This document shows, piece by piece, positions 10,677 to 51,758 of a stretch of DNA of 56,732 nt; position 1 is the first letter of the stretch, and each line of letters opens with the position of its first letter. Under the pieces are notes generated by a model, which saw only the letters and a list, made by a program, of their open reading frames with translations, searched no databases and was not told where the DNA came from. The position numbers and the translations under genes are program-made. This DNA is from Candidatus Hermodarchaeota archaeon (GTDB lineage: Archaea; Asgardarchaeota; Lokiarchaeia; Sigyniarchaeales; SOKP01): contig JBHLLP010000022.1 of NCBI GenBank assembly GCA_048885525.1, forward strand, positions 1-56,732. The letters are read 5' to 3'.

Positions 10677-10737
10677 TCGCACTGAAAAGCATAGTGATTT
10701 GCGATTTAACATTTTAAAAAGGTAGGGGTGAAAAAGT

Positions 10738-12627
10738 ATAGTTTGGAATAAACAGATTGCATATATTGATTTAACAACTGGAGAAATAACAAAAAAAAAG
10801 ATTCCAAAATTAATACGAGAAAGATTTTTGGGTGGTAGAGGTATAAATATGTATCTTCTATACAATCATCTTTCACCTGGAGTTGATCCTTTAAGTTCTG
10901 AAAATGTTTTACTTGTAGGTGTAGGTTTATTAACTGGAATCCCTGCTATGGGGAGTGGAAGATGTGATATCGCAGCAAAATCACCATTAACAGGTGCGAT
11001 TGGTGATTCAAACATCGGAGGATTCTTTGCACCAGAGATGAGAATGGCTGGATTTGATCATTTGGTAATAAAAGGAAAAGCTGAGAATCCTAGTTATATT
11101 TGGATACATGATGGAGAAATAGAAATTTTAGATGCGAGTCATCTATGGGGAAAGGATACATTTGAAACACAAAATATCATCCGTTCAGATCATGAAGATG
11201 AAGAAATTAAATCTTTAGTTATCGGTAAAGCCGGAGAAAATCTTGTACGTTTTGCTAATGTAAGAACTGGTATGAAAAATGCAGCTGGACGTACAGGTAT
11301 GGGTTGTGTTATGGGATCAAAGAACTTAAAAGCAATAGCTGCACGTGGAACTATGGATATTGAATTTGCCCATCCTATTGAATTACTAGATTACTGTAAA
11401 GAAATGATCGAAATGGTCATGAAAAATCGCTATTCAAGAGCTGCATCGAAATGGGGTACACTTGTTATTTATAGCACCACAAATACCACAGGGTTAATTC
11501 GAACGAGAAACTTTCAGTTAAATCAATTAGAAGAAGGTTGGGATATTGAACCGGAAGAAATGGACAAATATACTATTGGAATGTCTGGCTGTTATGGATG
11601 CCCAGTAAGTTGTCGTCATCGTTATACATTAAAAGAAGGTTTATTTGCTCCCTTTTTTGCTGAAGGTCCAGAATACACATCTTTAGGTGCATTTGGTACT
11701 ATGGTTGATTGTAAAAAAATGGAAACCGTTCTTACAGCTAATCATCTTGTTAATAAATATGGTTTAGATACATTAGAAACCGGGGGACTTATCGCTTGGG
11801 CTATGGAACTCTATGAGAAAGGAATAATTACTGAAAAAGTAACAGATGGATTAAAGATTGAGTGGGGTAATGAAGAAGTTCTCTATGAATTAATTAGAAA
11901 GATTGCTTATCGAGAAGGGTTTGGTAATCTACTTGCTGATGGATTCAAAACAGCAATCCCTAAAATAGGAGAAGAATCTAGATATTACGCAATAGAAGTA
12001 AAGGGTATGAGTAATTTACATTCAGATGAACGTCCAACACCTAGCTTGGCATTAGGTATTATAACTTCAACTAGAGGCGCTGATCATCTGAGAGGCCGTC
12101 CCGCCATAGATCTTTATGGATTACCAGAAGATTTTTTGGAGGAAATATATGGTGGTAAAATGTCCTCTGATTATAGATCTTACGAAGGAAAGAGTCGTAT
12201 GGTTTGGTGGCAAGAGCTTTTGTATGCCGTTACAGATTCTATTGGTACATGTAAATTTCAAACAGTGTTTCTAGCAGTCCATGCTCCAAAATGGGAGGAA
12301 TTCTCAAAGTTAATCTATTTAGTTTCTGGATTGCAGATTTCAGATTCCCAACTTATGGAAATTGGTGAAAGAATTTACACTCTCGAAAGAATGTTTAATA
12401 TTAGAGAAGGTTTTTCAAGAAAAGATGATATATTACCAGATCGATACTTTGAGGAACCGACTCCTATAGGACTTCCACGAGTTAGGGGAATAAAAATCGA
12501 TCGAATAAAATTTGAAAAAATGCTCGATGAGCATTATAGTCTTCATGGTTGGGATAAGAATGGAAATCCTACTGAAGAAAGTCTACGAAAACTTGGAATT
12601 GAAAACGAACCAACTCAAATTATATGA
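10738..12627 (+). CDS. aor: Tungsten-containing aldehyde:ferredoxin oxidoreductase family protein (629 aa if started at ATA 10738)
   Basis: KSPLTG, GRTGMGCVMGSKNLKAI, GPEY, RGADH and DSIGTCKF motifs. An in-frame upstream extension (I)VWNKQIAYIDLTTGEI...FLGGRG is the typical AOR N-terminus. Confidence 0.92.
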   Translation: MVWNKQIAYIDLTTGEITKKKIPKLIRERFLGGRGINMYLLYNHLSPGVDPLSSENVLLVGVGLLTGIPAMGSGRCDIAAKSPLTGAIGDSNIGGFFAPEMRMAGFDHLVIKGKAENPSYIWIHDGEIEILDASHLWGKDTFETQNIIRSDHEDEEIKSLVIGKAGENLVRFANVRTGMKNAAGRTGMGCVMGSKNLKAIAARGTMDIEFAHPIELLDYCKEMIEMVMKNRYSRAASKWGTLVIYSTTNTTGLIRTRNFQLNQLEEGWDIEPEEMDKYTIGMSGCYGCPVSCRHRYTLKEGLFAPFFAEGPEYTSLGAFGTMVDCKKMETVLTANHLVNKYGLDTLETGGLIAWAMELYEKGIITEKVTDGLKIEWGNEEVLYELIRKIAYREGFGNLLADGFKTAIPKIGEESRYYAIEVKGMSNLHSDERPTPSLALGIITSTRGADHLRGRPAIDLYGLPEDFLEEIYGGKMSSDYRSYEGKSRMVWWQELLYAVTDSIGTCKFQTVFLAVHAPKWEEFSKLIYLVSGLQISDSQLMEIGERIYTLERMFNIREGFSRKDDILPDRYFEEPTPIGLPRVRGIKIDRIKFEKMLDEHYSLHGWDKNGNPTEESLRKLGIENEPTQII

Positions 12628-12643
12628 AATAGAGGGATATAGA

Positions 12644-13132
12644 ATGCAAAAAATATTATTTGTCGACCCTGAAAAATGCACTGGATGTAGATTATGTGAA
12701 AATGTATGTTCTCTCTATCATGAAAAAGTTAGTAATCCCTCTCGAGCAAGAATTCATATCATAAAATGGGAAAATTCAGGATTATACGTGCCAATGATTT
12801 GCCAACAATGTGAAACACCCATTTGTGAAACTGTCTGCCCTATGGGTGCGATAAGTAGAAATGAGAAAACAGGAGCAGTAATTATAGATGAAGAATTATG
12901 TGTAGGATGTAAACTTTGTATAATGTTCTGTCCACTTGGTGGAGTAGGAATTAACAAAAATAGAAAAATTTTAAAATGTGATCTTTGTGAGGGTGACCCT
13001 TTATGTGTAAAATTTTGTATTCCAGAAGCACTTCAATTTATAGATGCAAATACTATTAATCTAAAAAAGAGAAGAATAGCAGCAGAAAAATTATCAGAAA
13101 TTATGAAAAAATTATTAGAGGTTTCAATCTAG
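12644..13132 (+). CDS. 4x[4Fe-4S] electron-transfer subunit (DmsB/CooF-like), AOR partner
   Basis: MQKILFVDPEKCTGCRLCENVC, CQQC..PICETVCP, CVGCKLCIMFCP and KCDLC..DPLCVKFC. The likely start is ATG 12644 rather than 12513. Confidence 0.92.
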   Translation: MQKILFVDPEKCTGCRLCENVCSLYHEKVSNPSRARIHIIKWENSGLYVPMICQQCETPICETVCPMGAISRNEKTGAVIIDEELCVGCKLCIMFCPLGGVGINKNRKILKCDLCEGDPLCVKFCIPEALQFIDANTINLKKRRIAAEKLSEIMKKLLEVSI

Positions 13133-13164
13133 AGATTTTTTTAAAAATTTAAAAAGGATTAGAT

Positions 13165-14112
13165 ATGGTGGAAAAAATTAAAATCGGAATTATTGGAATT
13201 GGTCCAACTGGGGGGATTTTAGCAGCTCATCTTGCTAAATCAGGACAAAATGTGGTTCTAGTTGACATTAATAAGAGTCATATGGATAAGATTAAAAAGA
13301 AAGGATTAACATTAACAAACCTTAAAAAATTCAATGTAAAATTCCCAAAGGAGAACATTTGCTACTCTATAGAAGAACTGGAAGATAAGGAAATAGACAC
13401 TTTATTTATCGCTGTGAAAGCGTCTCACCTTATTGAAATTTTACCACAAATTAAAAAAGTTGTGAACCCCAATACAACCTTAATCAGTTTACAAAATGGA
13501 TTTGATACAGAGGAACTTATTGCAGAATATATAGGAGAAGAAAATACGATTCGCATTGTGGTTAACTATGCTGGCAATATTTTAGAGGATGGAGTTATAA
13601 GAATGTCATTTTTTAACCCTCCAAACTATTTAGGTGTAATATCATCTGAAGCAGAAGGAAAAGCCAAACAAATAGCAGAGATCATTGACTCCGCTGGATT
13701 AGAAACTATTTTTACTCCAGAAATAAAAAAATTTGAATGGACAAAATGTATACTCAATACCATAAGTCCTGTTTGTGTCACCACTAGAACAACAATGAAA
13801 CAAACAATGGAGTTTTCGGAAACTAGGGAGATTTGCAGAGAAATATTACGTGAGGGGATACAAGTTGCAAAAGCACGTGGAATCAACTTCGAACCAGATT
13901 TTTTAGATAAAGGTATGAGTTATCTGGATAAGGCAGGTCATCACAGAGTTTCAATGGAAGCAGATATTGATGCGGGCAATCCATCAGAAATAGGATTTCT
14001 TAATGGAAAAATAGTTGAATATGGAGAACTTGAAGGAATCCCCACGCCATATAATAAATTATTTGTATCCATAATTAAAGGATTGGAATTACCTCCAATA
14101 AATCGCAACTAA
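13165..14112 (+). CDS. panE: Ketopantoate reductase (PanE/ApbA) family
   Basis: GIGPTG Rossmann motif, AVK, LQNG, WTK, SM..D..G..SEI..LNG and PTPYN. Confidence 0.88.
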   Translation: MVEKIKIGIIGIGPTGGILAAHLAKSGQNVVLVDINKSHMDKIKKKGLTLTNLKKFNVKFPKENICYSIEELEDKEIDTLFIAVKASHLIEILPQIKKVVNPNTTLISLQNGFDTEELIAEYIGEENTIRIVVNYAGNILEDGVIRMSFFNPPNYLGVISSEAEGKAKQIAEIIDSAGLETIFTPEIKKFEWTKCILNTISPVCVTTRTTMKQTMEFSETREICREILREGIQVAKARGINFEPDFLDKGMSYLDKAGHHRVSMEADIDAGNPSEIGFLNGKIVEYGELEGIPTPYNKLFVSIIKGLELPPINRN

Positions 14113-14137
14113 TTCATGATCGAATTACTTTAAAATC

Positions 14138-14935
14138 ATGCTTAACGAAATTTTTTTCGCAGGTATTGATGTAGGAACATCATACGTAAAATCAGTATTA
14201 TTAAATAGTAATAAAGAGATTGTAAGCTTTTTTATTAATCGTACTGGTACTTCTATTGAAAATTCAAGTAAAAATGCTTATGAGAATACCCTTTCTAATG
14301 CTTCATTATCAAATACATCTATAAAGCGTATAACTGCAACTGGATATGGAAAAGATAAAGTTTCTTTCGCTAATACTTATAAAACTGAAATTAGTTGTCA
14401 TGCTAAAGGTGCTTATCATTACTTTCCGCAGAAAATTACAATTGTCGATATTGGAGGACAAGATACCAAGGTTATTAAACTTGATGAGAATGGTAAAATA
14501 TTGAGGTTCAAAATGAATAGAAAATGTGCTGCGGGTACAGGTGCATTTATTGAGGAAATTGCGTATCGACTCGATCTCCCTCTAAATGAATTAAATACTT
14601 TAGCTACTAAATCTACCTCTAAAGTTCCATTAGCAAGTTTTTGCACAGTTTTTGCAAAAACGGAAATTCTAACTCGAATAAAAGAAGGAGAAAAAGTTGA
14701 AGATTTAATTAAAAGCGCCTTTGGTTCTGTAATAAAAAGAATAATAGAAATGACAGAATTAGAGGGTACTGTAATTCTGACTGGAGGTTTAATAGCTTAT
14801 AATTCTATTATTGGAGAAATCTTAAAGACTGAAATAAATGCTGATATTCTTATACCACCTTATCCCCAATTAACAGGAGCAATAGGGGCTGCTTTGTTTG
14901 CTCTCGAAGATAATAACCCCAAATTACACAATTAG
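14138..14935 (+). CDS. ATP-dependent 2-hydroxyacyl-CoA dehydratase activase (HgdC/BadF type)
   Basis: GIDVGTS, TGYG, EISCHAKG, DIGGQDTK, KCAAGTG and CTVFA. Confidence 0.93.
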   Translation: MLNEIFFAGIDVGTSYVKSVLLNSNKEIVSFFINRTGTSIENSSKNAYENTLSNASLSNTSIKRITATGYGKDKVSFANTYKTEISCHAKGAYHYFPQKITIVDIGGQDTKVIKLDENGKILRFKMNRKCAAGTGAFIEEIAYRLDLPLNELNTLATKSTSKVPLASFCTVFAKTEILTRIKEGEKVEDLIKSAFGSVIKRIIEMTELEGTVILTGGLIAYNSIIGEILKTEINADILIPPYPQLTGAIGAALFALEDNNPKLHN

Positions 14936-15063
14936 ATTTTTTTTCTTTAAGGCTAAGATAAAGATGTGTAAGATTATACCCGTTTATTTAAATATACAAA
15001 TTACTAATTATTAGCTTACAGATCGTTTTTTTGATCCTTTTACAAAAAACAAAATGAAATATA

Positions 15064-18000
15064 ATGAGATCAATATTTAAAAAAAAAAAGACAATTGTAA
15101 TTTTAGGGATATTACTCACTCTTTTCCTAAATGTTTTTACAATTTCTAATGGTTTAGCAACAGTTATTCAAGAAGACGCGGTGTTTGATCTTGATAAAGA
15201 AGATCCTCTAGGACCTCAAGGTTATGGGGCGATAATTCCCTCTCCTAATACTTTAGGTACTGTTTATATCGATGGTTCAAATCAAGGTAAATTTACTATA
15301 ATGGATTGGGATGGATCATCAACAGGTTACGAGGAAATTGTAAGCTTTCCCGGTGAAGATATATCTTTATATTATCCAATGACATTAGATGATTACTGGG
15401 TGGGTAGTCTTTCATATAATGACGAGATTAATCCTTGGACTCAAGTGAGATGGCTAAATGTTTCTGCATATAATGCTGAAGCTGAAGACTTGTCACCTTT
15501 TACTGTTAGTACATTATTTGATTATTATGCTTTGGTAGAGGGAGGTACATTAAACGCTCCGGCTAACGATGAACAACCAATGCAAATCGATGTTATTATT
15601 AAAAGTGGAGGCCCGAAAGTATTAAAATTTGATTGGATAATGGCAAATCCTGCTGCAGCATCATATGATTATTATTTAATTTCTCCATCCGGAAGATTTA
15701 TGGATGCAAATTGCTACCCAGTCCCTGTATCTCACTCAACGACACCTGGTACAACTTTATTTAACTACTTGATATTTACAGCCCATCAAGCTGGTACATA
15801 TCGCTTAATTTTTGAGGTTTACCATACTGCTCCTAGTTCTTTATATTTAGAATTTTTACACACTCAAATATCATCTTTACCCATAAATTCGCTGCAATTT
15901 GGAGGAAATAGTGATGGAATATTGTCTATTGATCTAGGGGAATATGCTAATTGGCAATCAAAATGGTTCAGAATTAGTGGAAAAAAGGGAGATCTCTTTA
16001 CACTAGACTTATTTGAAGATTATTCTACCGGCTTTACACCGATTATAGATATTTGGACCCCATGTGCAAATGGTTATTTTCTTGACATTTCGGTAGGAAC
16101 AGGGACTCATGAAATTTATTTTCCTAAGAATGGTTATGCATATGTTTCATTTACTGATATGATTTTTGGTGATTGGTATAGGTATTCATTATTCTTAAAA
16201 AAAATCGAAACTGTACAATACAACCTCGGAGACTCTCTAACATCGTATATGATATCTGGTGATGAATCAACAGCTATACAATTCTCTCTTCGGGAGGATT
16301 CAATTGTTCGATTTAACTATACTAGTTTATCTCCTGGAAATCCAGAGATTTACGCATTTGGTAGTGCTAGAGATTTTATTTATATGAATTCAAAAGAATT
16401 ATATTGTTATGACATCAATTCAGATTTCTTTACTAGTTCTGCAGATTCAACAGACTTCTACTGGCATTTCATGCCAGCTGGAACTTATAAAGCTGTAATT
16501 GAAAACACAGTTCCTTTATCTGATGGGATCTTTAAAATTAGCTCACAAGTATATGAATGGTCAGATATGCCAATTCCTGTTAATACTCTAACCTATCCAA
16601 TTGATTATCCATCAGAGTTCTTAACCCTTGATTTTGAAGCAGATCCTGATTTTGAAAGTCTTAAAAGTCCAGTAGGGATTGATATTATTATCCCAAATAT
16701 GGCTCAAGTTAGACTAAATACAACAATGTGGGCAGTAGACAATATCTGGGCCGCAGCAAGTAGTTTTCCTTCACATCTCTATACTCTAAATGATACAGAT
16801 TTGATATTTTATACTTCCGACTATCCATATCCCGCTTTTTCGACCGATGGTTTAGATAGCGAAGTTAATGATTACTTATATATTGGAGCCCCTACAAGAT
16901 GGACTGGGATGACATTTGACTTTTCAGTTCCAGGAGTGGCGGGATCTATTGATACACCTCTAGTTTATACTGATCCTGCTTGGGGTTCTATTCCAATGGA
17001 CAATGATGGTACTAGTGGCTTTACTGCTGACGGTACTATTGAATTAGATATATCTAATGCTAATTTTGCTGCTTGGACTAAAGGAGCTGATGATGATTTG
17101 GATCCAAATATAACTGAAAGTAATTATTACTGGATGGCAATACGTTGTTCTGGAGATTATTCAACTGTACCTATCATTCAAGAGTTAACTTTGTTAAATA
17201 ATACAATTAGAGGGGATTTGCAATTTGTGCTTATAAGAGAGAGTGGCTATAAATATGATGACTATTGGGCACCTTCACAAATAATTCAGCCTACGGATCT
17301 ATTAAATCTAGAGGTTAGTTTAGATGATGATGATGGTGGTCATACTTTTGATACAAGAGAATCCTATATTATTGAAAATTTAGCTTCTGATCCATATACT
17401 ATTGGTCTTGAAGGAGGAACATATAAATTATTAATTGTTCCTGAACAATGGGATTGCCCAGGGACAGTTTCTGTTCAGTTTGCTGTTGAAGATTTCTGGG
17501 GTTATGCGCATCATGAAACATATGACATTGTAGAAACTCCACATCTTCATTCAAGGGATATAACAAACTATACATTTACTGGATATTCTAATATAACAGG
17601 ATCAATTTACCCTTACGGACTAACAACTTGGTTTAACCATACTGAAAGTTTATCTCCCTATGGTGGTGAAAGCTATTTCGCTCTTGAGTGTAGTGGTAAA
17701 CCCTATCAATGGACACAACTAGTTGTTACTGCGGATGGTTTAGGTATAGGCGATTATGATCTTTACTTAATTCAAGATCTTCCATGGATTAACGCAAACG
17801 GACCAAATAATGAAATTGAGCAAATTTTCCCCACAAATGTTGATTATAATACAACTTATGAGTTTGGAGTTTTTTCTGATCATTTTACTTTGCTATTTGA
17901 AGTTAGTGCGCCCGCAGGAAATAATGTTTCATTTTATATTTCCCTAAGCCAATATGATACTATCCCACTGATAACAAGTGATTTACGAGCATCTTATACA

Positions 18001-18123
18001 CCACCACTAGATCCAGCATTAATAATTGCATTGGCAATAGGCATCCCAGCTGCAGCTGGAGCAGTTGTTGTTGTATATGTTTTGAAGAAAAAGGGGAAGA
18101 TATTAACAAAACGTCCATCATAA
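15064..18123 (+). CDS. Large secreted, C-terminally membrane-anchored surface glycoprotein
   Basis: KKKK plus hydrophobic signal peptide; acidic, aromatic, beta-rich body with many N-x-S/T sequons; C-terminal TM followed by KKKGK. Confidence 0.8.
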   Translation: MRSIFKKKKTIVILGILLTLFLNVFTISNGLATVIQEDAVFDLDKEDPLGPQGYGAIIPSPNTLGTVYIDGSNQGKFTIMDWDGSSTGYEEIVSFPGEDISLYYPMTLDDYWVGSLSYNDEINPWTQVRWLNVSAYNAEAEDLSPFTVSTLFDYYALVEGGTLNAPANDEQPMQIDVIIKSGGPKVLKFDWIMANPAAASYDYYLISPSGRFMDANCYPVPVSHSTTPGTTLFNYLIFTAHQAGTYRLIFEVYHTAPSSLYLEFLHTQISSLPINSLQFGGNSDGILSIDLGEYANWQSKWFRISGKKGDLFTLDLFEDYSTGFTPIIDIWTPCANGYFLDISVGTGTHEIYFPKNGYAYVSFTDMIFGDWYRYSLFLKKIETVQYNLGDSLTSYMISGDESTAIQFSLREDSIVRFNYTSLSPGNPEIYAFGSARDFIYMNSKELYCYDINSDFFTSSADSTDFYWHFMPAGTYKAVIENTVPLSDGIFKISSQVYEWSDMPIPVNTLTYPIDYPSEFLTLDFEADPDFESLKSPVGIDIIIPNMAQVRLNTTMWAVDNIWAAASSFPSHLYTLNDTDLIFYTSDYPYPAFSTDGLDSEVNDYLYIGAPTRWTGMTFDFSVPGVAGSIDTPLVYTDPAWGSIPMDNDGTSGFTADGTIELDISNANFAAWTKGADDDLDPNITESNYYWMAIRCSGDYSTVPIIQELTLLNNTIRGDLQFVLIRESGYKYDDYWAPSQIIQPTDLLNLEVSLDDDDGGHTFDTRESYIIENLASDPYTIGLEGGTYKLLIVPEQWDCPGTVSVQFAVEDFWGYAHHETYDIVETPHLHSRDITNYTFTGYSNITGSIYPYGLTTWFNHTESLSPYGGESYFALECSGKPYQWTQLVVTADGLGIGDYDLYLIQDLPWINANGPNNEIEQIFPTNVDYNTTYEFGVFSDHFTLLFEVSAPAGNNVSFYISLSQYDTIPLITSDLRASYTPPLDPALIIALAIGIPAAAGAVVVVYVLKKKGKILTKRPS

Positions 18124-18144
18124 ATTTAAATATTTATTAATCTC

Positions 18145-18154
18145 TTTTTTTTTT
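18145..18154 (+). terminator. Oligo-T archaeal terminator candidate
   Basis: T10 run about 20 nt after the stop of the surface-protein gene. Confidence 0.5.
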
Positions 18155-18651
18155 ACATTATAATTACCTTTAAAATATAATAGAATTTCTAAAACATAAG
18201 GCTATTAGTTTTAAGATTTTAAAGTTAACTTTAAGTTAGGTTTCACAAAACTAATATTGAAAAAAATATTTTAGTTAGAATCCAATTTATATTGGAAATT
18301 TTAGAAAAATAAGCTCTATGATTGATATATTGAAACTTTATTCTTATTAAGATCTTAATAAAATGCAAAATTATTTTTATAAAAATGAGATGGAATTACA
18401 ATTTGTGCAAAAAATCGGACAATCTTTTTCATAAAAATTGATTTGTTATTCATATTTTTTAAGAAAAAATTTTCTTTTTAATTAAATTTATGAGCTCTTT
18501 TCGCTTTTATTTTTGAAATAAGGATGTTAGAGAGAAATATTAAAATTATAAACGCATATTTATATCATAGCAATACAATTCACGCAATAATGGAACAGAA
18601 CGTTCATTAAATTCACGAAACATTTATTAAGATGGATGACTAAATACATAT

Positions 18652-40780: not shown

Positions 40781-42226
40781 ATGTTATTAAGTGTAATTAT
40801 TATCCTTTCAAGCTTTATCGGAGTAATTCTTTTTATTGTAACAGAAAAGATGAATAGAGCAATTGTATCATTATTGGGGGCATTAGTTACTTATTTTGTT
40901 TTAATCTTTCTTGAAGGATTAGATTTTTCAGTAATTGTTGATCTATTATTTAGTTCAAGTGAAGATGGTTTTGTAAATTTGCATTCTTTGATTTTAATTA
41001 TAGGAATGATGATGATAGTACAAATCTCACATGAAGTTGGAACTTTTCAATTTATCGCAGGAAAACTAATTAAACTCTCAAAAGGAAAGCCTCTTCGTCT
41101 AATGATTATATTTTGTTGCGTAACGGTACTTATATCAGCAATTTTAAATAATATTTTGACAGTTATCATTATAATACCACTTACTATTACAGTTTCAAGA
41201 ATTTTAAATATAAATCCTTCTCCATATATTCTTACTCAAGCAATATTAGTAAACATAGGCGGTACAGTCTTTTCAATTTCCTCAATTCCGAATATTTTAA
41301 TCACAACTTATGCAGGCATAGAATTTATAGAATTTTTTATTAACGTTGGAGTAATTTCTTTCATTGTTTTCATATTTACTCTCTTATTTTTCATTCTACT
41401 CTATAAGAAAGAGTTAATAATACCAGAAGAAGGTCAAAAAGCATTAAAAGAGTTTGACGTTTGGAATGTCGTTCAAAATAAAAAGTTGTTATATCAATCA
41501 TTAATTACTTTAATTACTTTACTAATTTTACTCACAATTATTCCATCTTCAATTCTATCTCCAGATATTATTGCTCTAACCACCGCTATAATTTTAATAA
41601 TTATCACGAGATTAGAACCAAGAGAAATTATAAGTAAAATAGATTTTGAGTTGATCTTCTATTTATTAGGTATTTTTATTATTGTAGGAGGATTGGAGAT
41701 AACAGGAGCAACAGAAGTTCTCGGAAATTTTATTTTAAATATTGGAGGAAGTAATCTCTTTTTACAACTTCTCTTAATTCTATGGTTTTCAGCTTATTTA
41801 AGTAGTTGTATTGATAATATACCTATAACTAAAGTTTTAATCCCTGTTGCAGATACTATGACAGAAACAGCACTATTAACCACTAGAAAGCAAGTTTTTT
41901 ACAGTCTTGCATTTGGGGCAAATTGGGGTGATAATTTGACACCATTAGGTGATAATATTCTTGTAGTGAATATTGCCGAACAGAATAAACGTCCAATAAG
42001 CTTTAAATCCTTTTTCAAATTAGGATTTTTTACATCTAATTATCAATTATTAATTCTTTCACTCTATTATAGTTTAATTTTTTATTTTCAAATTGGGATT
42101 ATTATTTTAGGGATTGTTGGTTTAATTCTAGTAGTATTCTACTGTTTGAATAAATTTGGTTCAAAAAAGATTAAATCTCAAATCTATGCTTTTAACAATA
42201 AATTAAGAGAAATTATAATAAGGTGA
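40781..42226 (+). CDS. ArsB/NhaD/P-protein (IT superfamily) permease
   Basis: Many TM helices; SAILNN, NIGG, IDNIP and GANWGDNLTPLG. Confidence 0.88.
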   Translation: MLLSVIIILSSFIGVILFIVTEKMNRAIVSLLGALVTYFVLIFLEGLDFSVIVDLLFSSSEDGFVNLHSLILIIGMMMIVQISHEVGTFQFIAGKLIKLSKGKPLRLMIIFCCVTVLISAILNNILTVIIIIPLTITVSRILNINPSPYILTQAILVNIGGTVFSISSIPNILITTYAGIEFIEFFINVGVISFIVFIFTLLFFILLYKKELIIPEEGQKALKEFDVWNVVQNKKLLYQSLITLITLLILLTIIPSSILSPDIIALTTAIILIIITRLEPREIISKIDFELIFYLLGIFIIVGGLEITGATEVLGNFILNIGGSNLFLQLLLILWFSAYLSSCIDNIPITKVLIPVADTMTETALLTTRKQVFYSLAFGANWGDNLTPLGDNILVVNIAEQNKRPISFKSFFKLGFFTSNYQLLILSLYYSLIFYFQIGIIILGIVGLILVVFYCLNKFGSKKIKSQIYAFNNKLREIIIR

Positions 42227-42233
42227 TCCTGAG

Positions 42234-42872
42234 ATAGTATTTAAAAATATTCTAAGAATAAAAGCAGCTTTACCAGAAGTTAAACATGTGGCCATGTTCT
42301 ATAATAATGGCACAATTTTTCAAACTACATTTGAACAAGAGATTAATATCCCAAAACTAGGTGAAAATTTAGCAGAAGTATTGAATCACATAAGAAGACT
42401 GTATGAAATTTGTAATTATAATTTTGAAGAATATAAAAAAGTGATTTTTGAAACTGATGATATGTCTATTATTATTTTAAAACTTGGTGAGGATAGTAAT
42501 ATCGCCCTTTTTTTCAAGAAGGAGGAAGAAAAAGAATTAAAGTTAACTGCAATAAAACGATATATGACTAGAATTGAAGAATTAATCGATATGGATGAAA
42601 GAGAACTGATAATACAAGATATAATTGCAAGAGAAGAAGAAATTAAAAATATAAAAGAAGATCTTCATAAAAAAATAGAAATAATTACGAATTTGCGTAA
42701 TGAATTAGACAGTGTCGAGAAGGGGATAGTTGAAGGTGATCAGAAAAAACTCATGAAAGAATTAAATGATCTAGAACTTGAATGTAAAAATTTAAACCAT
42801 GAAATAGAAAAAAAAGATATCGAAATCGAACAATTAAAAGAAAAAATAGAAAAAAGCCATAAACAAGCTTAA
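42234..42872 (+). CDS. Roadblock/LAMTOR-like domain fused to a C-terminal coiled coil (212 aa if started at ATA 42234)
   Basis: The extension IVFKNILRIKAALPEVKHVAMFYNNGTIF provides the helix-strand-G start of a roadblock/profilin-like fold. VIFETDDMSIIILKLGEDSNIALFF follows, then ~95 aa of heptads. Confidence 0.6.
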   Translation: MVFKNILRIKAALPEVKHVAMFYNNGTIFQTTFEQEINIPKLGENLAEVLNHIRRLYEICNYNFEEYKKVIFETDDMSIIILKLGEDSNIALFFKKEEEKELKLTAIKRYMTRIEELIDMDERELIIQDIIAREEEIKNIKEDLHKKIEIITNLRNELDSVEKGIVEGDQKKLMKELNDLELECKNLNHEIEKKDIEIEQLKEKIEKSHKQA

Positions 42873-43182: not shown

Positions 43183-43211
43183 TACCTATTTTTGTATTGT
43201 AAATTTGTTAT

Positions 43212-44133: not shown

Positions 44134-44194
44134 TTTACGTGATTTTCCTCATATTTATTGTTTTTCTATATACATTACTGCATAATGATTACAT

Positions 44195-44261
44195 AGTATT
44201 TAAATGTTTTCATATGAAAACATTCAAGTAGATCGATAACTTTAAATACTCTGAAAACATT
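44195..44261. promoter_or_regulatory. Divergent promoter with mirror-image TATA boxes and a perfect 22-bp palindrome
   Basis: AGTATTTAAA (44195-44204) and TTTAAATACT (44241-44250) are exact inverted copies. AATGTTTTCATATGAAAACATT (44203-44224) is a perfect palindrome, with an extra half-site TGAAAACATT at 44252-44261. Confidence 0.75.
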
Positions 44262-44312
44262 TTTTTATATAAGAAATTTAAGTCAAAATAGAAGAATATA
44301 CTACATTTTAAA

Positions 44313-44882
44313 ATGAAAAAAACATCTCCTAAAAAACAGAGTAATTTTCTTGGATTCAGGCTTTCAGAAGGAATAATCAATAAACTAGATTTAATTGCAA
44401 AACAACAGAATAAGACACGTGGCTTGGTTGCTAAAGATGCTATTGAACAATGGCTTAATTTAGAATTGTTCAACCAAACTAATGAAATGATTATGATGTC
44501 GAAGTCAATTTTCTCTAAAATTCTTTCAAAATTAGATGATTCTTCTTTAGATATAATAGCAAAAGATTTTGCTGATTTATTTTCAGATATAATGAAATTC
44601 TTAACAGCTAAACTAATGAATGAAGAAACATTGAAATCATATACAGACTTTCTAATTAATTTTTTTGGTAGAAATGGATTAAAATGGTTTAATACCCTTG
44701 ATATCCAGACTAAGGAGAACTCATTCATTTTTAGAGGTTTACATGATATGGATGAAGTTTATTCAAACTTTTTCACAAAATTCTACAAATTTCTATTATC
44801 TGAATATTTTGACTTAGATTTTACCACTAAAATTGAAGAAAAAACGTCAAATTTAATTCATCTAGAATTTAAACGTAAATAA
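44313..44882 (+). CDS. Ribbon-helix-helix (CopG-like) transcription regulator with C-terminal putative ligand-binding domain
   Basis: FLGFRLSEGIINKLDLIAKQQNKTRGLVAKDAIEQWL is a typical RHH. A ~140-aa alpha/beta C-terminal domain follows. Confidence 0.8.
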   Translation: MKKTSPKKQSNFLGFRLSEGIINKLDLIAKQQNKTRGLVAKDAIEQWLNLELFNQTNEMIMMSKSIFSKILSKLDDSSLDIIAKDFADLFSDIMKFLTAKLMNEETLKSYTDFLINFFGRNGLKWFNTLDIQTKENSFIFRGLHDMDEVYSNFFTKFYKFLLSEYFDLDFTTKIEEKTSNLIHLEFKRK

Positions 44883-44900
44883 ATAAAAAGGTAAGATGAA

Positions 44901-45569
44901 ATGGAAAATTTAACACAAATTGAAAAGGAGACTCAACACAATCTTAAAATAGCACAATATGAAAAAGAACTTGCCCAAAAGCTAAAAATTAATGCTTTAG
45001 CAGAAATTAAAAAGGCAGAAGCTAGAGAATCTTTACTAAAAATTGAATATGATTTAGCTGAAATTAAAAAAGATTTAGCGATTAAAAGAAGAATTTTGGT
45101 TAAAGAAAAAACACAAATTAAAAAGAATCAGATTTTAGACTTTTCGGATGAAGAACTAAAAATTGAAAATAATTATGCGGTTTATAATGAACAGATTTCA
45201 AAAAATCAGAAGGAAATTGCTGAAGTTAATAAAAAAATTGCCTTAGTAGAAAAACAAATTGCTGAACAAAAATTAGGATTAGCTAAAGAAAGATTAGAGG
45301 TAGCAAAAGCACGAGAAAAATTAGCTAATACACAAAATAAATACTTGAAAGTTGCTCGAGCACAAGCGTCTGAAAATAAAATTTTGAATGCGAAAAATAA
45401 CATAGAAAATCAAAAGAAAAAGTTATTAAAACAGAAAAATGACGTAATTGAAAAGGAAAAAGATGTAAGAAAAAAAGAAAATAAATTAGCTGATTTAAAG
45501 AAAGAACTTTCTTCGAAATTTGCTGAAAGAGAAAAAATAAGGCATCCTGGAGTTATCGTTGCTGGATAA
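44901..45569 (+). CDS. All-helical coiled-coil protein B (paralog of 43212..43868)
   Basis: Collinear with protein A, e.g. NKLADLKKELSSKFAEREKIR vs NKLADLKKELSEKLAERERVR. Confidence 0.85.
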   Translation: MENLTQIEKETQHNLKIAQYEKELAQKLKINALAEIKKAEARESLLKIEYDLAEIKKDLAIKRRILVKEKTQIKKNQILDFSDEELKIENNYAVYNEQISKNQKEIAEVNKKIALVEKQIAEQKLGLAKERLEVAKAREKLANTQNKYLKVARAQASENKILNAKNNIENQKKKLLKQKNDVIEKEKDVRKKENKLADLKKELSSKFAEREKIRHPGVIVAG

Positions 45570-45607
45570 ACTCTAAAATCTGAAATCAAATTATAGGTGA
45601 TTTTTTT

Positions 45608-46690
45608 TTAAATCCAATTTTTCCTTTTAAAAAATATAAGCATTGTAATGGCAATAAGAATCATTATTATAATTAAAATGGGATACGCAACTGGATTTGA
45701 GAATTCTGGCATATGAATGAAATTCATTCCATAAAATCCTGTTAAAAATGATAAAGGAATAAATACTGTAGAAATAATGGTTAACACTTTCATTATATCA
45801 TTCATTCTATTGCTTACACTTGATAAATACATATCCAACATTCCAAAAACAATATCTCTATAGTTTTCCAATTGATCACTTATTCTGTAAATATGGTCAA
45901 ATATATCTTTGAGATAAATCTGCAACTCATCGCTAATAAGTTTAGTCTGCTCTCTTTGTAATTTATTAATAACCTCTCTTAGTGGCCAGATTGATTTTCT
46001 TAAATCAATATTAGCTCTTTTTAATCGATATATTGATTGCACTAGTTCAGGTTTTGGATTTTTTACTAAAATATCCTCTAATTCATCAATAATTTCACCA
46101 ATAATTTCTAAAATTAAAAAGTAATTATCTACAATAACATCAATCAATGCATAAGCTAAATAATCAGCTTTCATTGATCTAATTCTGCCTCGTGCTCCTC
46201 TAATCCTTTCTAAAATTGGATTAAAAGTATCACTTTCTAATTCTGAAAAAGTTATCACAAAATTTTCTGCAAGAATTAAACTAATTTGTTCACTTTCAAA
46301 AATCTCATTTATCTCATCCCAAAGAAGTTTTCTAAGTACAATAAAAATAAAATATCCATAATCTTCAAATTTTGGCCGTTGATTAGGATTTAAGATATCC
46401 TCTAAAACAAGAGGGTGAATATTAAATTGATTGCCAATTTCCTCAATTCTTTCTACTTCAGTTAATCCTGTAATTTCAATCCATCTGACAAAATCTTTTT
46501 CTATAACCTGTAAATTTTTAACAGCTTCAACTTCCTCTTTAATTAAATATTTATCTTTATTATAATCAATAACTTTTATTCTTGTAGGTACTTTTGGTTT
46601 CTCACCTGCATATATTAATGTTCCAGGAGGTGTACCAATCTTTTCTGTTTTCTTTTTAACTTTGCTAAGTCTTTTTGATAGACTTTTAAT
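45608..46690 (-). CDS. corA: CorA magnesium/cobalt transporter (360 aa if started at ATT 46690)
   Basis: YGMNF..MPE signature. The frame stays open for 144 codons upstream of the tracked GTG and contains the CorA N-terminal motifs KIGTPPGTLIY.G, WIEITG and IHPLVLEDILN..QRPKFEDY. Confidence 0.92.
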   Translation of the reverse strand: MKSLSKRLSKVKKKTEKIGTPPGTLIYAGEKPKVPTRIKVIDYNKDKYLIKEEVEAVKNLQVIEKDFVRWIEITGLTEVERIEEIGNQFNIHPLVLEDILNPNQRPKFEDYGYFIFIVLRKLLWDEINEIFESEQISLILAENFVITFSELESDTFNPILERIRGARGRIRSMKADYLAYALIDVIVDNYFLILEIIGEIIDELEDILVKNPKPELVQSIYRLKRANIDLRKSIWPLREVINKLQREQTKLISDELQIYLKDIFDHIYRISDQLENYRDIVFGMLDMYLSSVSNRMNDIMKVLTIISTVFIPLSFLTGFYGMNFIHMPEFSNPVAYPILIIIMILIAITMLIFFKRKNWI

Positions 46691-46757
46691 TTTACTCTCA
46701 CCATTAAATTAAAAAGCATTTTCAAGAATTAAAATTTCAAAGATTATAATAATTTAA

Positions 46758-47570
46758 TTATTCAATCCTTTTAACTAAACTAGGTGTACTTATGTCGATG
46801 TTATATTTTTGTACAGAGGTAAACACAGATGATCGTAGTTCTCCTAATATTCTTAGCATTGATTTTATTTCCCTAATAAACACAAAAAGGGTATATTCAA
46901 CCGCAAAACTTTGAAAATCTGTTATTGCTACGAATGGTTTTGGATCATTTAGAATTTCAGGAATAGATTCTGTAGCTTCTAATAAAGCCCTTTCTACTTT
47001 ATCTTTGTCTTCAGTGTAATCTGCTGTGATTTTAATTCTTCTTCTAACTACATTTTTTTTTCCAAGGTTTTCTGTTTCCTCTGATAATAATTTCTGATTA
47101 GGTGTTGAAATTATTATACCATCAAAATCAACTAATATTGTAAACATTAGTTTTATTTCACGAACTTCAACCATTCTGTCCTTGTAAATTAAGTAATCCC
47201 CAACCACAAATGGTCTACTTGTCATTATTATAATACCAGCAATTGCGTTTCCAAACGTATTAATCGCAGCAAAACCGATAATCGTACCTCCAACTAGCGT
47301 AAATAATGATGTAATTAAACCAATTGCTTCGACAAATTGTACTAAAATCATACTGATAATTACTAATACAATTATTACTTTTACAATTCGTTGTAAGTTT
47401 CTTGCTGTCTGTTCTTCTAATTTTTCCTGTTTCTTAAGTCTATTAATTTGCTTTCTAAAAACTATATAAATTAGCCATCCGATTATTATTGCTAGTGCAA
47501 CAGCTAATATATTAATTATATTATCAGCTATCCATCCAAAAATCATATCAATTATGTTCTGAAAAATCAT
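46758..47570 (-). CDS. mscS: Small-conductance mechanosensitive channel
   Basis: 3 TM helices, GFAA...N..AG....RPF.VGD, PN and a C-terminal beta/alpha domain. Confidence 0.9.
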   Translation of the reverse strand: MIFQNIIDMIFGWIADNIINILAVALAIIIGWLIYIVFRKQINRLKKQEKLEEQTARNLQRIVKVIIVLVIISMILVQFVEAIGLITSLFTLVGGTIIGFAAINTFGNAIAGIIIMTSRPFVVGDYLIYKDRMVEVREIKLMFTILVDFDGIIISTPNQKLLSEETENLGKKNVVRRRIKITADYTEDKDKVERALLEATESIPEILNDPKPFVAITDFQSFAVEYTLFVFIREIKSMLRILGELRSSVFTSVQKYNIDISTPSLVKRIE

Positions 47571-47819
47571 TTTAATCTTTTCTAATTAGGAATTATTTCT
47601 ATTTTAATGATCCTATTTTAAAAAATTAAACGGTTTGGTTAAACTCATATGATAACTATAGTGAACAAAAGTAATTTATAGAATAAATTTATATTTCTTT
47701 TAATAATGGAATCTCAATTCACTAAATATTTCTTTTAGTAATACGATAAAAAAGCATTCTAAAATTAATTTTAAAAACTTTTTTCATTTTAATTAAAAAT
47801 GTGGAAAAAACAGAATAAT

Positions 47820-48464
47820 TTAACTAGTTTTCCTTCTTTGAAATCTCTTTAAATTTTTCTGCCTTTTTTGTTCTAAAGGTTTCATATAACCCAATAAATC
47901 ATCAAATACTATTTTTTGGTGTAAATGTGGACGAAACACAAACTTATAATATTTTTTTTTCCAATAGAAGCGTAGACTATTAAGATATAATAATATTTCT
48001 TTAATTTGCTGAGGTTTGATTTCAGTATATGAAGTTACTACATTTTCTTCGGTATTAGATTCGACATTCCTTTTTAATAAACTACCGTCTATTTTTAAGA
48101 TGTAGACAGTTCCATTTAAATAAGCATTATTTTCTTTATTGTAAGTCAATCCTATGTATTGAGCATATAACTTAAAATTTTGTCTGATTTTAGCTTCTAA
48201 GTAATTTTTTTGAATTACATCACGATTTTTATTCTTTATTAAAATTTTTAATTCTGAATCCTCCATTTCTCCTTTGTTTGTTTGGAGCATTTCATAATAT
48301 CTTACTTGTAGACTAGTAAATATTAAACTCTCGATATCACTATAAAAATCTTGTACTTCAAGTGCTAAAATTCTATCATCTTTGATATGATCCCATATTA
48401 TAAAGAAAAGTACGGCAATAGAAACGCCTAAACTAATATATACAAGGATATCCTCGGGAGGCAT
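47820..48464 (-). CDS. Hypothetical protein with N-terminal TM anchor
   Basis: ILVYISLGVSIAVLFFIIW, then a soluble helical domain and a basic tail. Confidence 0.7.
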   Translation of the reverse strand: MPPEDILVYISLGVSIAVLFFIIWDHIKDDRILALEVQDFYSDIESLIFTSLQVRYYEMLQTNKGEMEDSELKILIKNKNRDVIQKNYLEAKIRQNFKLYAQYIGLTYNKENNAYLNGTVYILKIDGSLLKRNVESNTEENVVTSYTEIKPQQIKEILLYLNSLRFYWKKKYYKFVFRPHLHQKIVFDDLLGYMKPLEQKRQKNLKRFQRRKTS

Positions 48465-48694
48465 TTTTAATAGATATTTGTTTTTTTTAAAGTATTTTTA
48501 AGTTAGTTAATTATAGATATCTATTCTTTTTAAAATCATGATGAAATCTCTTAAGATTATTTTAAGATAAAATAAAAAACTTATACCAATAAAATTATAA
48601 CTCTTTCCCTAAATACAGAGAACAAATGAAGAATATAAATATGATGATTCTTCTAATATTTTAAAATAATGTAATAATTTTGGAGTAAATCTTA

Positions 48695-49108
48695 ATGTCC
48701 GATCAAAAACAAAAATATAGTAAAGAAGAAATTGAAAGTAGATTAGCGTTATTTGAAGGTATTATAATTGGAATTTATGGCAACTGGTTAGTCTCCCTCA
48801 TCCAAATGATATCGTTTATTTCACCTCTAATTATACTGCAGAGCATATTAACCATTTTTTCCTTAAGTTGTTTAATTGCTTTACTTGCCATAAGGATTTT
48901 TGGAAGTCGACTAGAATCTCGTATTGAAGTCTTAGTCTTAAGTTGTGGTCATTTCTTACCACTTTGTATAACTCTAATTATCGAAAGACTACTGATTAAA
49001 GACGCCTTTTTCTTAATGATAGGATTAATTTTATTCATTATGATTTATTATGCTGAATTTGAACGTGTAAGGAGAAAAAAGACAAATGTTAATATCAATA
49101 AAATTTGA
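48695..49108 (+). CDS. Hypothetical 4-TM membrane protein
   Basis: Four hydrophobic segments and a basic C-terminus. Confidence 0.7.
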   Translation: MSDQKQKYSKEEIESRLALFEGIIIGIYGNWLVSLIQMISFISPLIILQSILTIFSLSCLIALLAIRIFGSRLESRIEVLVLSCGHFLPLCITLIIERLLIKDAFFLMIGLILFIMIYYAEFERVRRKKTNVNINKI

Positions 49109-49152
49109 ATTAGATAAGTATATCAAATCGAATTTTAACAGAGTAAAATTTT

Positions 49153-49779
49153 TTAAATATCAATATTGATACCATAATTCTTAAGATCTTCCACTAATTT
49201 TTCCGTATAGTAATAATGGATTCCTTTAAAACCTAAAGATCGTGCCATCTTTACATTTTTCTTTTCATCATCAATTAATATGGTTTCCGATGGTTTACAT
49301 TTGATATGTTTGATTAACTCTTCATAGAATTCAATATCATCTTTATTTTTCTTATAATCAAAGCTAAATACGGCATCGTCAAAATATTTTAAAAAATCAC
49401 ATTTATTATCCAAGTATTCAACCCGCTCTCTGACATTACCACTGAAAATTAGTAATCGATATTTTTTTTTTAAACTCTTTATTAAATCCTCAATGCCATA
49501 ATGAATACAATAAGACCCAAACCATATATATCTAGTATGCTTTCTTTCTCTTTTGTTAATTTCTAATTTTGAAAACAGTTTTTCTTCAAACTCATCCATA
49601 GTCATTAATCCTTTCCTTAACAAGTGACCCTCTGAATTTGGTGTATCACTAAAAAATTCTCGAAGTAATTTTTCATTTTTAATATCATAAATTTCTCTAA
49701 TTTTTTCGATTGCTAAATAAGATCCAGGTGTAAAATAGACTCCTCCTAAATCAAAAATTATTGTTTTAATATTGTTCAT
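49153..49779 (-). CDS. HAD-superfamily hydrolase (YihX-like)
   Basis: IIFDLGGV, K and IDD...NV..A..LG motifs. Confidence 0.9.
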   Translation of the reverse strand: MNNIKTIIFDLGGVYFTPGSYLAIEKIREIYDIKNEKLLREFFSDTPNSEGHLLRKGLMTMDEFEEKLFSKLEINKRERKHTRYIWFGSYCIHYGIEDLIKSLKKKYRLLIFSGNVRERVEYLDNKCDFLKYFDDAVFSFDYKKNKDDIEFYEELIKHIKCKPSETILIDDEKKNVKMARSLGFKGIHYYYTEKLVEDLKNYGINIDI

Positions 49780-49982
49780 TTTTTACAATCTTTCCTGTTT
49801 TTATTATTTCAAATTCTAAGAATTCATAAGATAAAGCTAATTATTATATAACTTTTGAATAATAAAAGGGGCTTTTAAAACTTAATTATAATATAAAGAA
49901 TTAATTAACTTTAAAGCAAAATTAAAATTATAACTCAAATTTCTTTATTAAATATAAATTTTAATAATCAAGTGAAAAAACT

Positions 49983-51758
49983 ATAAACCTAAGGAATCGA
50001 TTATCATCTATTAAGGAAAAGTTATATCAAAAACTTACATCGTTCTTTAAAGAAGAGGTTGATAGTAGAGATCTAAAAAATCTTGCAAAAATTATATTAT
50101 TAATTATAGTCTTGATTTTCACACTTGCCGCTTTAAATTTTAATAAATTTCAAAGTTATCGAAAATGTGAAAGAATTCAGTTTTATTCAGCGGGAGCTAC
50201 GCTATACGCAAATTTATATTATCCCTCTAGAACCTTATCTTTTCAAGAGAAAAAACCTTTGATTATTTATTGCCATGGAATTGGTAGCCAACGTGATTTC
50301 GATCTTAGGATTCCTATAGAATTTACTAAGCGCGGCTTCTACGTTGCTGCTTTGGATTATCACGGACACGGCGAAAGTGGTGGTACAATTAATGATATTG
50401 ACAGTTCAACAAATTCACCTGCTCTTGCTCAAGATTGTACAAAGTTATTAGAAAAGCTCAAGAGTTCATCATTTTTTTCAGATATTAACACATCTCAAAT
50501 TGGATTAATTGGTCATTCACTTGGAGGTATGGTTGTTCTTATGAATCAAGCTCTTAATCCAGATTTTAAGGCAACAGTTGCTTGGGCTCCCCTTGTAAAT
50601 TTCACACCGCCTAAATTTGGGCTTGGGTGGCAAGGATATGAGCAATATATACCTGCCAATTTAATTAATGCTACCAATTCAGAAAATCTACTGATTATTA
50701 TGCATGTAAATGATGAAGCCTTAAATTATTCTGAACAAGCATTGTTAGCAAAAAAATTAACAAATTGTACAGTTATTAATGTAACTAGACCTCTAATTGG
50801 AGGTGGTCATCAGTTATTCTCAAACCAAGTTCTTCTTGATTCAATTCAATATTTCGAAATACAATTTTTTAATTCTGAAAGCATAAATGGACCAATTACG
50901 ATAACTTATATTTGGAATTATGTATTAATTTTTCTAAACTTAGGGCTACTAATCTCTATCATTCTTCTACTTATTTCATATAGTTCAAAATTTTTTCGAT
51001 TAAATTCAAAATCAAGCAATCCCGTTATTAAGAATGAAAACAAACGCTTTCCTAAAACGAGAAAAATCGGCAAAATAGTATTAATACTTTTTTTCTCATC
51101 GATTTTTATTTTAAATTGGCAGTTATTTGCATCTATTTTTGGTTTGATTGGAGTATTTTTTGCATCCCTTCTTTTTAGTCTCTTCTACTTAATAATCAAA
51201 ATAATTAAATATTTCATAGGTTTTAAAAAAAAAAAAGTTGAATCTAAATTAAAAGAAATAATAAATCATATTAAAAATGAATTAGATATAAAAATTCTTA
51301 TCTATTCAATCATATGTGCTTGGTATTTTATCGTTATTTATTTAATTTTTTCATTCTTCTACCCTTTTGCTTTTATATGGCCTTCAAATCTCATAGCTAT
51401 ATTTATTTCGATATTATTTTTTCCAGTTTATTATTCAATAGAAATATTATTTCGAAAGCTCATATACCCTCTATTAAGTTTTGTAAAATCTGAAAAAGCT
51501 AAAGCAAAACTAATTATATTCTATACATTTATAATATATGGAATCTTAATGATTTTTGCTCAAAATTTTTCTTACTTACCTTCTGTTTTATTTACCTTCT
51601 TAATTTTACTTATAGCTACTGCCGTTAATACTATAATTTATGAACATACAAAAAGATTTAGTGCAGTAATATTGAGTTCTTTTAATATAATCCAAGTATT
51701 TTTCTCAGCTGTAATCTCAAATGTAATAGGAATTGGTATAGTTGGTCATTTATTTTAA
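49983..51758 (+). CDS. Alpha/beta hydrolase with N-terminal TM and C-terminal multi-TM domain (591 aa if started at ATA 49983)
   Basis: HG, DYHGHGES, GHSLGG nucleophile elbow and GGH; about 8 C-terminal TMs. The in-frame extension completes the N-terminal TM (KIILLIIVLIFTLAAL). Confidence 0.85.
   Translation: MNLRNRLSSIKEKLYQKLTSFFKEEVDSRDLKNLAKIILLIIVLIFTLAALNFNKFQSYRKCERIQFYSAGATLYANLYYPSRTLSFQEKKPLIIYCHGIGSQRDFDLRIPIEFTKRGFYVAALDYHGHGESGGTINDIDSSTNSPALAQDCTKLLEKLKSSSFFSDINTSQIGLIGHSLGGMVVLMNQALNPDFKATVAWAPLVNFTPPKFGLGWQGYEQYIPANLINATNSENLLIIMHVNDEALNYSEQALLAKKLTNCTVINVTRPLIGGGHQLFSNQVLLDSIQYFEIQFFNSESINGPITITYIWNYVLIFLNLGLLISIILLLISYSSKFFRLNSKSSNPVIKNENKRFPKTRKIGKIVLILFFSSIFILNWQLFASIFGLIGVFFASLLFSLFYLIIKIIKYFIGFKKKKVESKLKEIINHIKNELDIKILIYSIICAWYFIVIYLIFSFFYPFAFIWPSNLIAIFISILFFPVYYSIEILFRKLIYPLLSFVKSEKAKAKLIIFYTFIIYGILMIFAQNFSYLPSVLFTFLILLIATAVNTIIYEHTKRFSAVILSSFNIIQVFFSAVISNVIGIGIVGHLF

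Follow-up and report, generated by a model that had tools for sequence, protein, structure and literature searches.

We find that the codons ATA, ATT and ATC (collectively ATH) very probably act as true start codons when they lie 6-7 nucleotides (nt) behind the Shine-Dalgarno (SD) motif GGTGA, and that they would do so throughout a genus of Asgard archaea and in a few per cent of its genes, including those for the ribosomal proteins rpS10 and rpL10e and the initiation factor aIF1. The DNA at the center of this study, called the window below, is contig JBHLLP010000022.1 in its full length of 56,732 nt, one (C22) of the 87 contigs of a metagenome-assembled genome (MAG) of 3.58 Mb that is 99% complete and has a G+C content of 29.4%. 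Its genus is the clade of 'Promethearchaeota archaeon' MAGs within the Lokiarchaeia. A preliminary description of the window had proposed that initiation at AUA and AUU, guided by the SD, is routine in this lineage, and the proposal is supported by independent evidence of three kinds: a position-specific excess of ATH codons, orthology, and the protein domains that would be truncated if translation began elsewhere. Comparisons were made with up to 24 congeners and with 16 genomes from three other families of the same order; the assemblies are independent of each other, and closed chromosomes (CP070831.1 and CP070805.1) are among them.

Window genes with ATA or ATT at the head of the frame

The 3′ end of the 16S rRNA of this organism is GGATCACCTCCT, with the anti-SD stretch ...GGAUCACCUCCU and with AGGAGGTGATCC as the full SD complement. 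The preliminary description had pointed to four ATA or ATT sites in the window and to three sites with canonical start codons (ATG, GTG or TTG) for comparison, and all seven coordinates and spacings proved to be exact. These sites are listed here with their genes, each read as in the interpretation that we favor.

10727..10731, plus strand: SD core GGTGA of aor, 6 nt before ATA 10738 and complementary to the 16S 3′ end GGATCACCTCCT
10738..12627, plus strand: aor, tungsten aldehyde:ferredoxin oxidoreductase, read from ATA 10738-10740
42221..42229, plus strand: SD site of the roadblock/LC7 gene, the nine bases AGGTGATCC (SD run of 9), with 7 nt from GGTGA to ATA
42234..42872, plus strand: roadblock/LC7-like gene, read from ATA 42234-42236
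46698..46702, minus strand: SD core GGTGA of corA, 7 nt before ATT 46690
45608..46690, minus strand: corA, Mg/Co transporter, read from ATT 46690-46688
49971..49975, plus strand: weaker SD-like AGTGA of the hydrolase gene (SD run of 4), 7 nt before ATA 49983
49983..51758, plus strand: membrane-anchored alpha/beta hydrolase, probably read from ATA 49983-49985, the least certain of the four
10406..10422, minus strand: canonical comparison site GAGGTGA-7-ATG (ATG 10408), heading a Cys-rich open reading frame (ORF) of 51 codons
27441..27456, plus strand: canonical comparison site GGTGA-8-ATG (ATG 27454), spacing checked
52384..52397, plus strand: canonical comparison site GTGA-7-TTG (TTG 52395), spacing checked

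The extended N-termini of these genes had been described as apparently coding although they contain no canonical start, and this holds for aor, corA and the roadblock gene, whose conserved N-termini lie upstream of every in-frame ATG, GTG or TTG. With codons numbered from the upstream stop, a canonical start first appears at position 32 in aor (30 codons inside the gene as read from ATA), at 22 in the roadblock gene, at 150 in corA and at 48 in the hydrolase gene. When AOR is read from ATA, its residue 8 pairs with residue 9 of Pyrococcus furiosus AOR (1AOR), and when CorA is read from ATT, its residue 12 pairs with residue 4 of Thermotoga maritima CorA; because the N-termini align in this way, the extensions of aor and corA can be taken as coding. 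Translation from its first canonical codon would cost CorA about 140 residues of the cytoplasmic domain, and the first canonical start of the hydrolase, a TTG, falls within a predicted membrane helix. The SD motifs also overlap stop codons at two of the sites: the in-frame upstream stop of aor is the TGA within its own GGTGA, and the TGA that ends the gene upstream of the roadblock gene (42224-42226) sits within AGGTGATCC.

The corA gene illustrates what such starts do to annotation. Its public protein has 320 residues and begins MDYNKDK, which corresponds to an internal ATT (46570-46568, minus strand) that has no SD and encodes residue 41 of the SD-led reading, so the public protein is 40 residues short; ATG-started orthologs have 359-363 residues. 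The preliminary description had expected systematic mis-annotation of N-termini, and this expectation is confirmed for corA, even with a pipeline that allows a non-canonical start. Gene calling of the Prodigal type truncates or misplaces such N-termini, and the errors distort protein families, predictions of signals and membrane segments, and structure models in the Asgard proteomes that are being mined for eukaryotic signature proteins.

As a separate observation, the 51-codon Cys-rich ORF at the first comparison site (10256-10408, minus strand; MTEVTKCRCMNCLQRF...) is shorter than length cut-offs usually allow and probably encodes a genuine small zinc-ribbon protein.

Start codons and Shine-Dalgarno strength across the genome

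Genome-wide, we listed frames of at least 100 codons with an in-frame stop no more than 12 codons upstream and no canonical start between the two, and asked which codon stands at a fixed distance behind GGTGA. At a spacing of 6 nt the codon was ATH in 25 of 60 cases and canonical in 13, whereas AAA, AAT, TAT, TTA and TTT jointly accounted for 8; at a spacing of 7 nt it was ATH in 7 of 31. The in-frame flanking spacings of 3, 9 and 15 nt gave 12/58, 3/47 and 2/37. Spacings 6 and 7 taken together, ATH makes up 32 of the 64 non-canonical ORF-initial codons against a baseline of 14.6% (binomial p 2.6e-11), and the placement of ATH codons 6-7 nt behind GGTGA is not due to chance. The genome-wide excess of SD-positioned ATA and ATT that had been suspected from the window was thus found (p ~3e-11). 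It goes with an SD that can pair with the 16S 3′ end and is specific to spacings 6-7, as is appropriate for near-cognate codons led by an SD. Raw counts of GGTGA-N-codon without ORF context gave no signal, which makes simple pattern counting unsuitable for other genomes, and a lenient scan for any 5-mer of the anti-SD complement at spacings 5-8, which is diluted by purine-rich coding sequence, gave a weak excess of ATT and ATA and was replaced by register-fixed scans.

When SD matches are scored in a fixed register, ATH accounts for a steady 14-15% of non-canonical ORF-initial codons as long as the match does not exceed 3 nt, and its share climbs to 22% at 5 nt, 34% at 6 nt and 60% at 7-8 nt, which corresponds to an SD-linked excess of about 40 genes. 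The strength of the SD also separates the two kinds of start codon. Behind the full GGTGA the ratio of ATH to ATG is 32:18, compared with 15:75 behind HGTGA, that is, GTGA preceded by a base other than G (odds ratio 8.9, p 2e-8). GTGA is extended to GGTGA in 68% of ATH starts versus 19% of ATG starts, the latter value being near background. Therefore, the four-nucleotide GTGA suffices for ATG, while ATH starts require the fifth base pair provided by the full GGTGA.

The 35 GGTGA-ATH candidates of the genome include rpS10, rpL10e (ATA in this genome; its next canonical start lies 39 codons in) and a small GTPase that would lose its P-loop if read from the next canonical start. A Pfam domain would likewise be cut in a GT4 glycosyltransferase, an M28 peptidase, a HIT protein, an RmlD/epimerase-type protein, a rubrerythrin and a DJ-1/PfpI protein; when DJ-1 is read from its ATH codon, position 2 of the Pfam profile falls at residue 2. 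These truncations bear directly on the possibility that the true starts are the next in-frame ATG, GTG or TTG and that the open stretch upstream is an untranslated leader. Gene finders do pick such downstream codons, and several candidates have their next canonical start within just 1-9 codons, a distance at which Pfam cannot discriminate. Nevertheless, a leader of this kind is very improbable, since it would strip 144 residues from the cytoplasmic domain of CorA, 30 from domain 1 of AOR, the P-loop from the GTPase and the conserved N-termini from rpL10e and rpS10, since congeners place ATG or TTG exactly at the position of the ATH codon, and since the excess of ATH is confined to SD spacings 6-7.

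Ribosomes that finish an upstream gene might instead restart nearby, with no de novo initiation through the SD. The stop codon inside the roadblock SD invites this explanation, and 7 of the 32 GGTGA-ATH starts are no more than 30 nt from the end of an upstream ORF on the same strand. However, 21 of the 32 have no such ORF end within 150 nt upstream, what precedes aor and the hydrolase gene is either a long intergenic stretch rich in A and T or a gene of divergent orientation, and the proportions of coupled starts resemble those of ATG starts. Termination-reinitiation is rejected as a general cause on account of the 21 uncoupled starts, and we regard it as quite improbable overall.

Our estimate of the share of genes that would be read from ATH codons is 1.3% to about 4%. 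The figure of about 40 genes equals 1.3% of the ORFs that reach 100 codons and is a lower bound, because the filter demands a nearby stop and a recognizable SD. An estimate independent of the SD was obtained by aligning stop-to-stop ORFs with those of a closed congener (G006, of which 1.2 Mb was sampled): 147 of 722 pairs aligned upstream of the first canonical start, a number confounded by shadow ORFs and by leaders that stay conserved between genomes this closely related, and 21 of 476 (4.4%, an upper bound) did so when ORFs were restricted to at least 200 codons and extensions to at least 15 residues. About half of those 21 show a conserved SD with ATH or CTG. The four genes of about 50 (8%) counted in the preliminary description thus stand for the window, which is locally high, but do not carry over to the genome.

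Start codons in related genomes

If ATH codons are starts, orthologs should carry either a canonical codon or ATH at the identical position, and this is what the comparison suggested by the preliminary description revealed. For rpS10, all 20 congeners have ATA behind GGTGA-7, whereas 9 of 10 genomes from other families have ATG (the tenth, G030, is ambiguous). The aor codon is ATA in 15 of 16 orthologs within the genus and ATG in one (G022), and an SD-like GGGTGA, GGGTGG or AGGTGG is kept in 15 congeners. The roadblock codon is more evenly divided in the genus: ATA occurs in six genomes, always behind GGTGA-7, ATG in another six, of which three have the weaker TGTGA or AGTGA upstream, and TTG in one, and other families have ATG. 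For corA, the homologous codon is ATG in five congeners and TTG in eight, 6-7 nt after (G)GTGA, and it is ATT behind GGTGA-7 in the window, in G016, in G023 and probably in G018; the arrangement GGTGAGAGTAAA-ATT is common to the window and G023. Hydrolase orthologs have ATA in three genomes (including G005 and G008, both at spacing 7) and ATT in two (G016 and G014), all behind AGTGA, and in the paralog group five species have ATT behind GGTGA-6. Congeners begin rpL10e with ATG, GTG, TTG or ATC, and other families with ATG; among 75 species representatives, the codon is ATG in 52, ATC in 14, TTG in 6 and GTG in 3, and all 14 ATC codons sit 6 nt behind AGGTG.

The gene for aIF1, a protein of the SUI1 fold, is found in 22 of 24 congeners. 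The genome of the window has two copies, neither of which has an ATG, GTG or TTG before the zinc knuckle.

Contig C32:32182-32596 (locus L352:182-496), minus strand: main copy of aIF1, with an ATT start
Contig C2 (locus L353:172-486), plus strand: second copy of aIF1, with GGAGGTGA-8-ATA at the aligned codon

In the main copy, a conserved AAGGTTGTGA is followed after 9 nt by ATT AAA GAY GAY, the leader element being AAGGUUGUGA, 9 nt and AUU. Read from this ATT, the protein begins within 2 residues of the N-terminus of Methanocaldococcus jannaschii aIF1. All 78 informative species of the clade share this arrangement, again with no canonical start ahead of the zinc knuckle, and the codon is ATT in 75, ATC in 3 and never ATG. 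The aIF1A, aIF2 alpha and aIF2 beta genes of this genome start with ATG, and aIF1 is the sole ATH case among the four factor genes checked. In other families of the order (loci L434-L445), aIF1 starts with TTG in five genomes (G032, G025, G036, G038 and G040), GTG in one (G039), ATA in three (G030, G034 and G037) and ATG in three (G035, G029 and G027), so a weak aIF1 start seems to be widespread in the order.

Taken together, the alignments indicate that start codons drift between ATG, GTG or TTG and ATH in rpL10e, the roadblock gene and corA, whereas ATH appears to be fixed in rpS10, aor and aIF1, and that the same association between SD and ATH has arisen separately in several genes. They also bear on the possibility that the ATA and ATT codons are assembly or sequencing errors, or that the genes are pseudogenes. 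The genome of the window is indeed a MAG in 87 contigs, but the same ATH codons recur in independent assemblies (20 for rpS10, 15 for aor and 78 for aIF1), closed chromosomes included, the frames are intact, and essential ribosomal proteins are among the genes. Because of this recurrence, both explanations fail, and we consider them vanishingly unlikely; the ATH codon can therefore be treated as a bona fide start position.

The trait is pronounced in this genus, and at least one sister family shows it only weakly. In the sampled 1.2 Mb of G006, 14 ATH and 3 ATG codons lie 6-7 nt behind GGTGA, compared with 2 ATH and 16 ATG in 1.2 Mb sampled from a closed genome of another family (G032, 31% G+C; Fisher p 3e-5).

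Several observations weigh against our interpretation or narrow it. Of the four sites in the window, that of the hydrolase gene is the weakest, with a GTGA core of only 4 nt (AGTGA) and heterogeneous orthologs. The aIF1 ATT lies 9 nt after GTGA, not 6-7, and behind a split AGGTTGTGA, which places it outside the simple rule. Relatives are not independent of each other, and the 14 ATC codons of rpL10e may represent one or two events and the ATA of rpS10 a single one. The contrast with other families is drawn from 1.2 Mb of one genome, and that genome, G032, itself has a slight excess of ATH at 5-nt SDs (12/49); the trait may therefore not be strictly genus-specific.

Initiator tRNA, aIF1 and known parallels

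In the mechanism that we propose, GGUGA would pair with the 16S rRNA 3′ end (...GGAUCACCUCCU) and so bring the codon that follows after 6-7 nt into the P site, where AUA, AUU and AUC, which differ from AUG at the third base only, would meet the common initiator Met-tRNA (CAU). The extra SD base pair may offset the weak third-base pairing, and the first residue is most likely still Met, through wobble by the initiator tRNA. The initiator tRNA recovered with ARAGORN is consistent with this scheme: its anticodon is CAU, it has A1:U72, and its anticodon stem contains three G-C pairs (GGG/CCC). An altered initiator anticodon is rejected on this basis. An inspection of aIF1 and the initiator tRNA, as recommended in the preliminary description, thus yielded an ordinary tRNA and an ATT start on aIF1. 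Its suggestion of relaxed aIF1/aIF2 fidelity stays a hypothesis, and loss of aIF1 as the source of such relaxation is rejected, given that SUI1 is present in 22 of 24 congeners. In the ARAGORN predictions, the initiator tRNA gene (9579-9689 on its contig) carries a 32-nt intron after the anticodon loop, and a tRNA-SeC gene is also predicted.

A different code or initiator could also give rise to AUA and AUU starts, either because ATA encodes Met or because a second initiator or an Ile-tRNA yields proteins that begin with Ile. Mitochondria start at AUA and AUU, and tRNA detection in a MAG is incomplete: ARAGORN found only 13 tRNAs without introns and was noisy with introns allowed. However, ATA occurs at conserved Ile positions, for example the Ile of A-R-I-R-L in rpS10, which other families encode with ATT or ATC, and ATT and ATC act as starts too. 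A variant code in which ATA is Met is excluded by these two observations and the ordinary initiator tRNA. Since the single initiator-type tRNA found has a normal CAU anticodon, a second initiator is also disfavored, and the explanation as a whole is highly improbable. RNA editing at the start codons is another possible explanation.

Near-cognate AUU and AUA starts are known from bacteria, where infC and pcnB provide examples, and from mitochondria, and NCBI translation table 11 lists them. The genes studied here resemble infC and pcnB in placing a start that is near-cognate at the third position behind an SD. They differ in belonging to an archaeon with eukaryote-type factors (aIF1/eIF1 and not IF3), in making up about 1-4% of genes, including rpS10 and rpL10e, and not one or two regulatory genes, and in using all three ATH codons. 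The mitochondrial likeness extends to the start codons and an AT-rich genome. However, mitochondria have a modified single tRNA-Met, a changed code and no SD, whereas here internal ATA is Ile and the starts are tied to the SD. The anti-SD, the GGUGA core and the spacing of 6-7 nt are those of canonical archaeal SD-led initiation, from which the present case departs in that AUA, AUU and AUC exceed AUG behind the full GGTGA (32 vs 18). Reviews of archaeal initiation give AUG, GUG and UUG as the only start codons (PMC7531240), in contrast to the AUA, AUU and AUC starts across a whole Asgard genus, and describe SD sites as not being prevalent in the cultured Lokiarchaeon (PMC7531240, PMC12993045). 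We found no published description of AUH starts in Asgard archaea, of AUU or AUA starts in archaea, of AUU on aIF1 or of aIF1 autoregulation, although the coverage of the literature was incomplete and this is not proof of novelty.

The preliminary description had also raised the possibility of a regulatory use for such starts, and the conserved ATT on the aIF1 gene fits a regulatory link, although the feedback itself is proposed by analogy. The Escherichia coli infC gene, which encodes IF3, has an AUU start and is translationally autoregulated (Butler, Springer and Grunberg-Manago 1987, as cited in PMC4705826), and in eukaryotes eIF1 regulates its own synthesis by means of a poor AUG context (Ivanov et al. 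2010, as cited in PMC6237735 and PMC4705826). According to the account in PMC4705826, aIF1 of Sulfolobus solfataricus makes the 30S complex reject AUU in vitro. Because Sulfolobus aIF1 rejects AUU and because infC and eIF1 are autoregulated through weak starts, we infer that aIF1 may limit its own synthesis. Both infC and the aIF1 gene have a conserved weak start on a factor that polices start codons, which makes a similar feedback plausible; it is documented for infC and is suggested for aIF1 by this likeness. The parallel with eIF1 lies in a homologous protein (SUI1 fold) whose own start site is suboptimal and conserved, although what is weak here is the codon (AUU) together with an SD 9 nt away, rather than a Kozak context, and there is no scanning. 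In an infC-like loop, less aIF1 would allow more initiation at AUU and thus restore aIF1, and stringency would be held at a level where SD-assisted AUH starts are tolerated. More tentatively, this set-point might be permissive enough to make SD-assisted AUA, AUU and AUC, and occasionally CTG, regular starts even for ribosomal proteins, in which case the aIF1 start codon (ATT, ATA, TTG or ATG) would predict non-canonical usage across genera.

Alternatively, ATH starts may be the product of neutral decay under AT mutation pressure, tolerated by virtue of GGTGA, with no regulatory role and no aIF1 feedback. This account shares the initiation mechanism proposed above and differs on function alone, and it is a serious, if on balance doubtful, possibility. 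A genome of 29% G+C and the free interchange of start codons in rpL10e, the roadblock gene and corA are what neutral decay would produce. Less easily accommodated are rpS10 (20/20), aor (15/16) and aIF1 (78/78, never ATG), in which the ATH codon has been held far longer than in the drifting genes. Furthermore, among the four initiation-factor genes checked ATH is found solely on aIF1, and aIF1 is mostly non-ATG (TTG, GTG or ATA) in other families as well. The conserved AUU on aIF1 makes control of start-site stringency before the eukaryotes directly testable. Moreover, the extra SD base pair set against a weakened codon amounts to a natural experiment on the trade-off between the two pairings on a small subunit of eukaryote type.

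The preliminary description had considered AUA and AUU only. Both are used, and the set extends to ATC and probably to CTG, which stands 6-7 nt behind GGTGA in two cases genome-wide. Two ORFs outside the window are worth recording in this connection. A zinc-ribbon ORF of 316 codons on contig C4 (minus strand) has GGTGA-6-CTG both here and in G006, and its next canonical start is 80 codons in. On contig C43 (minus strand), an ORF of 549 codons has, behind GAGGATGATC-taa, GTC in this genome and ATC in G006, and its first canonical start lies 34 codons in here and 114 codons in for G006.

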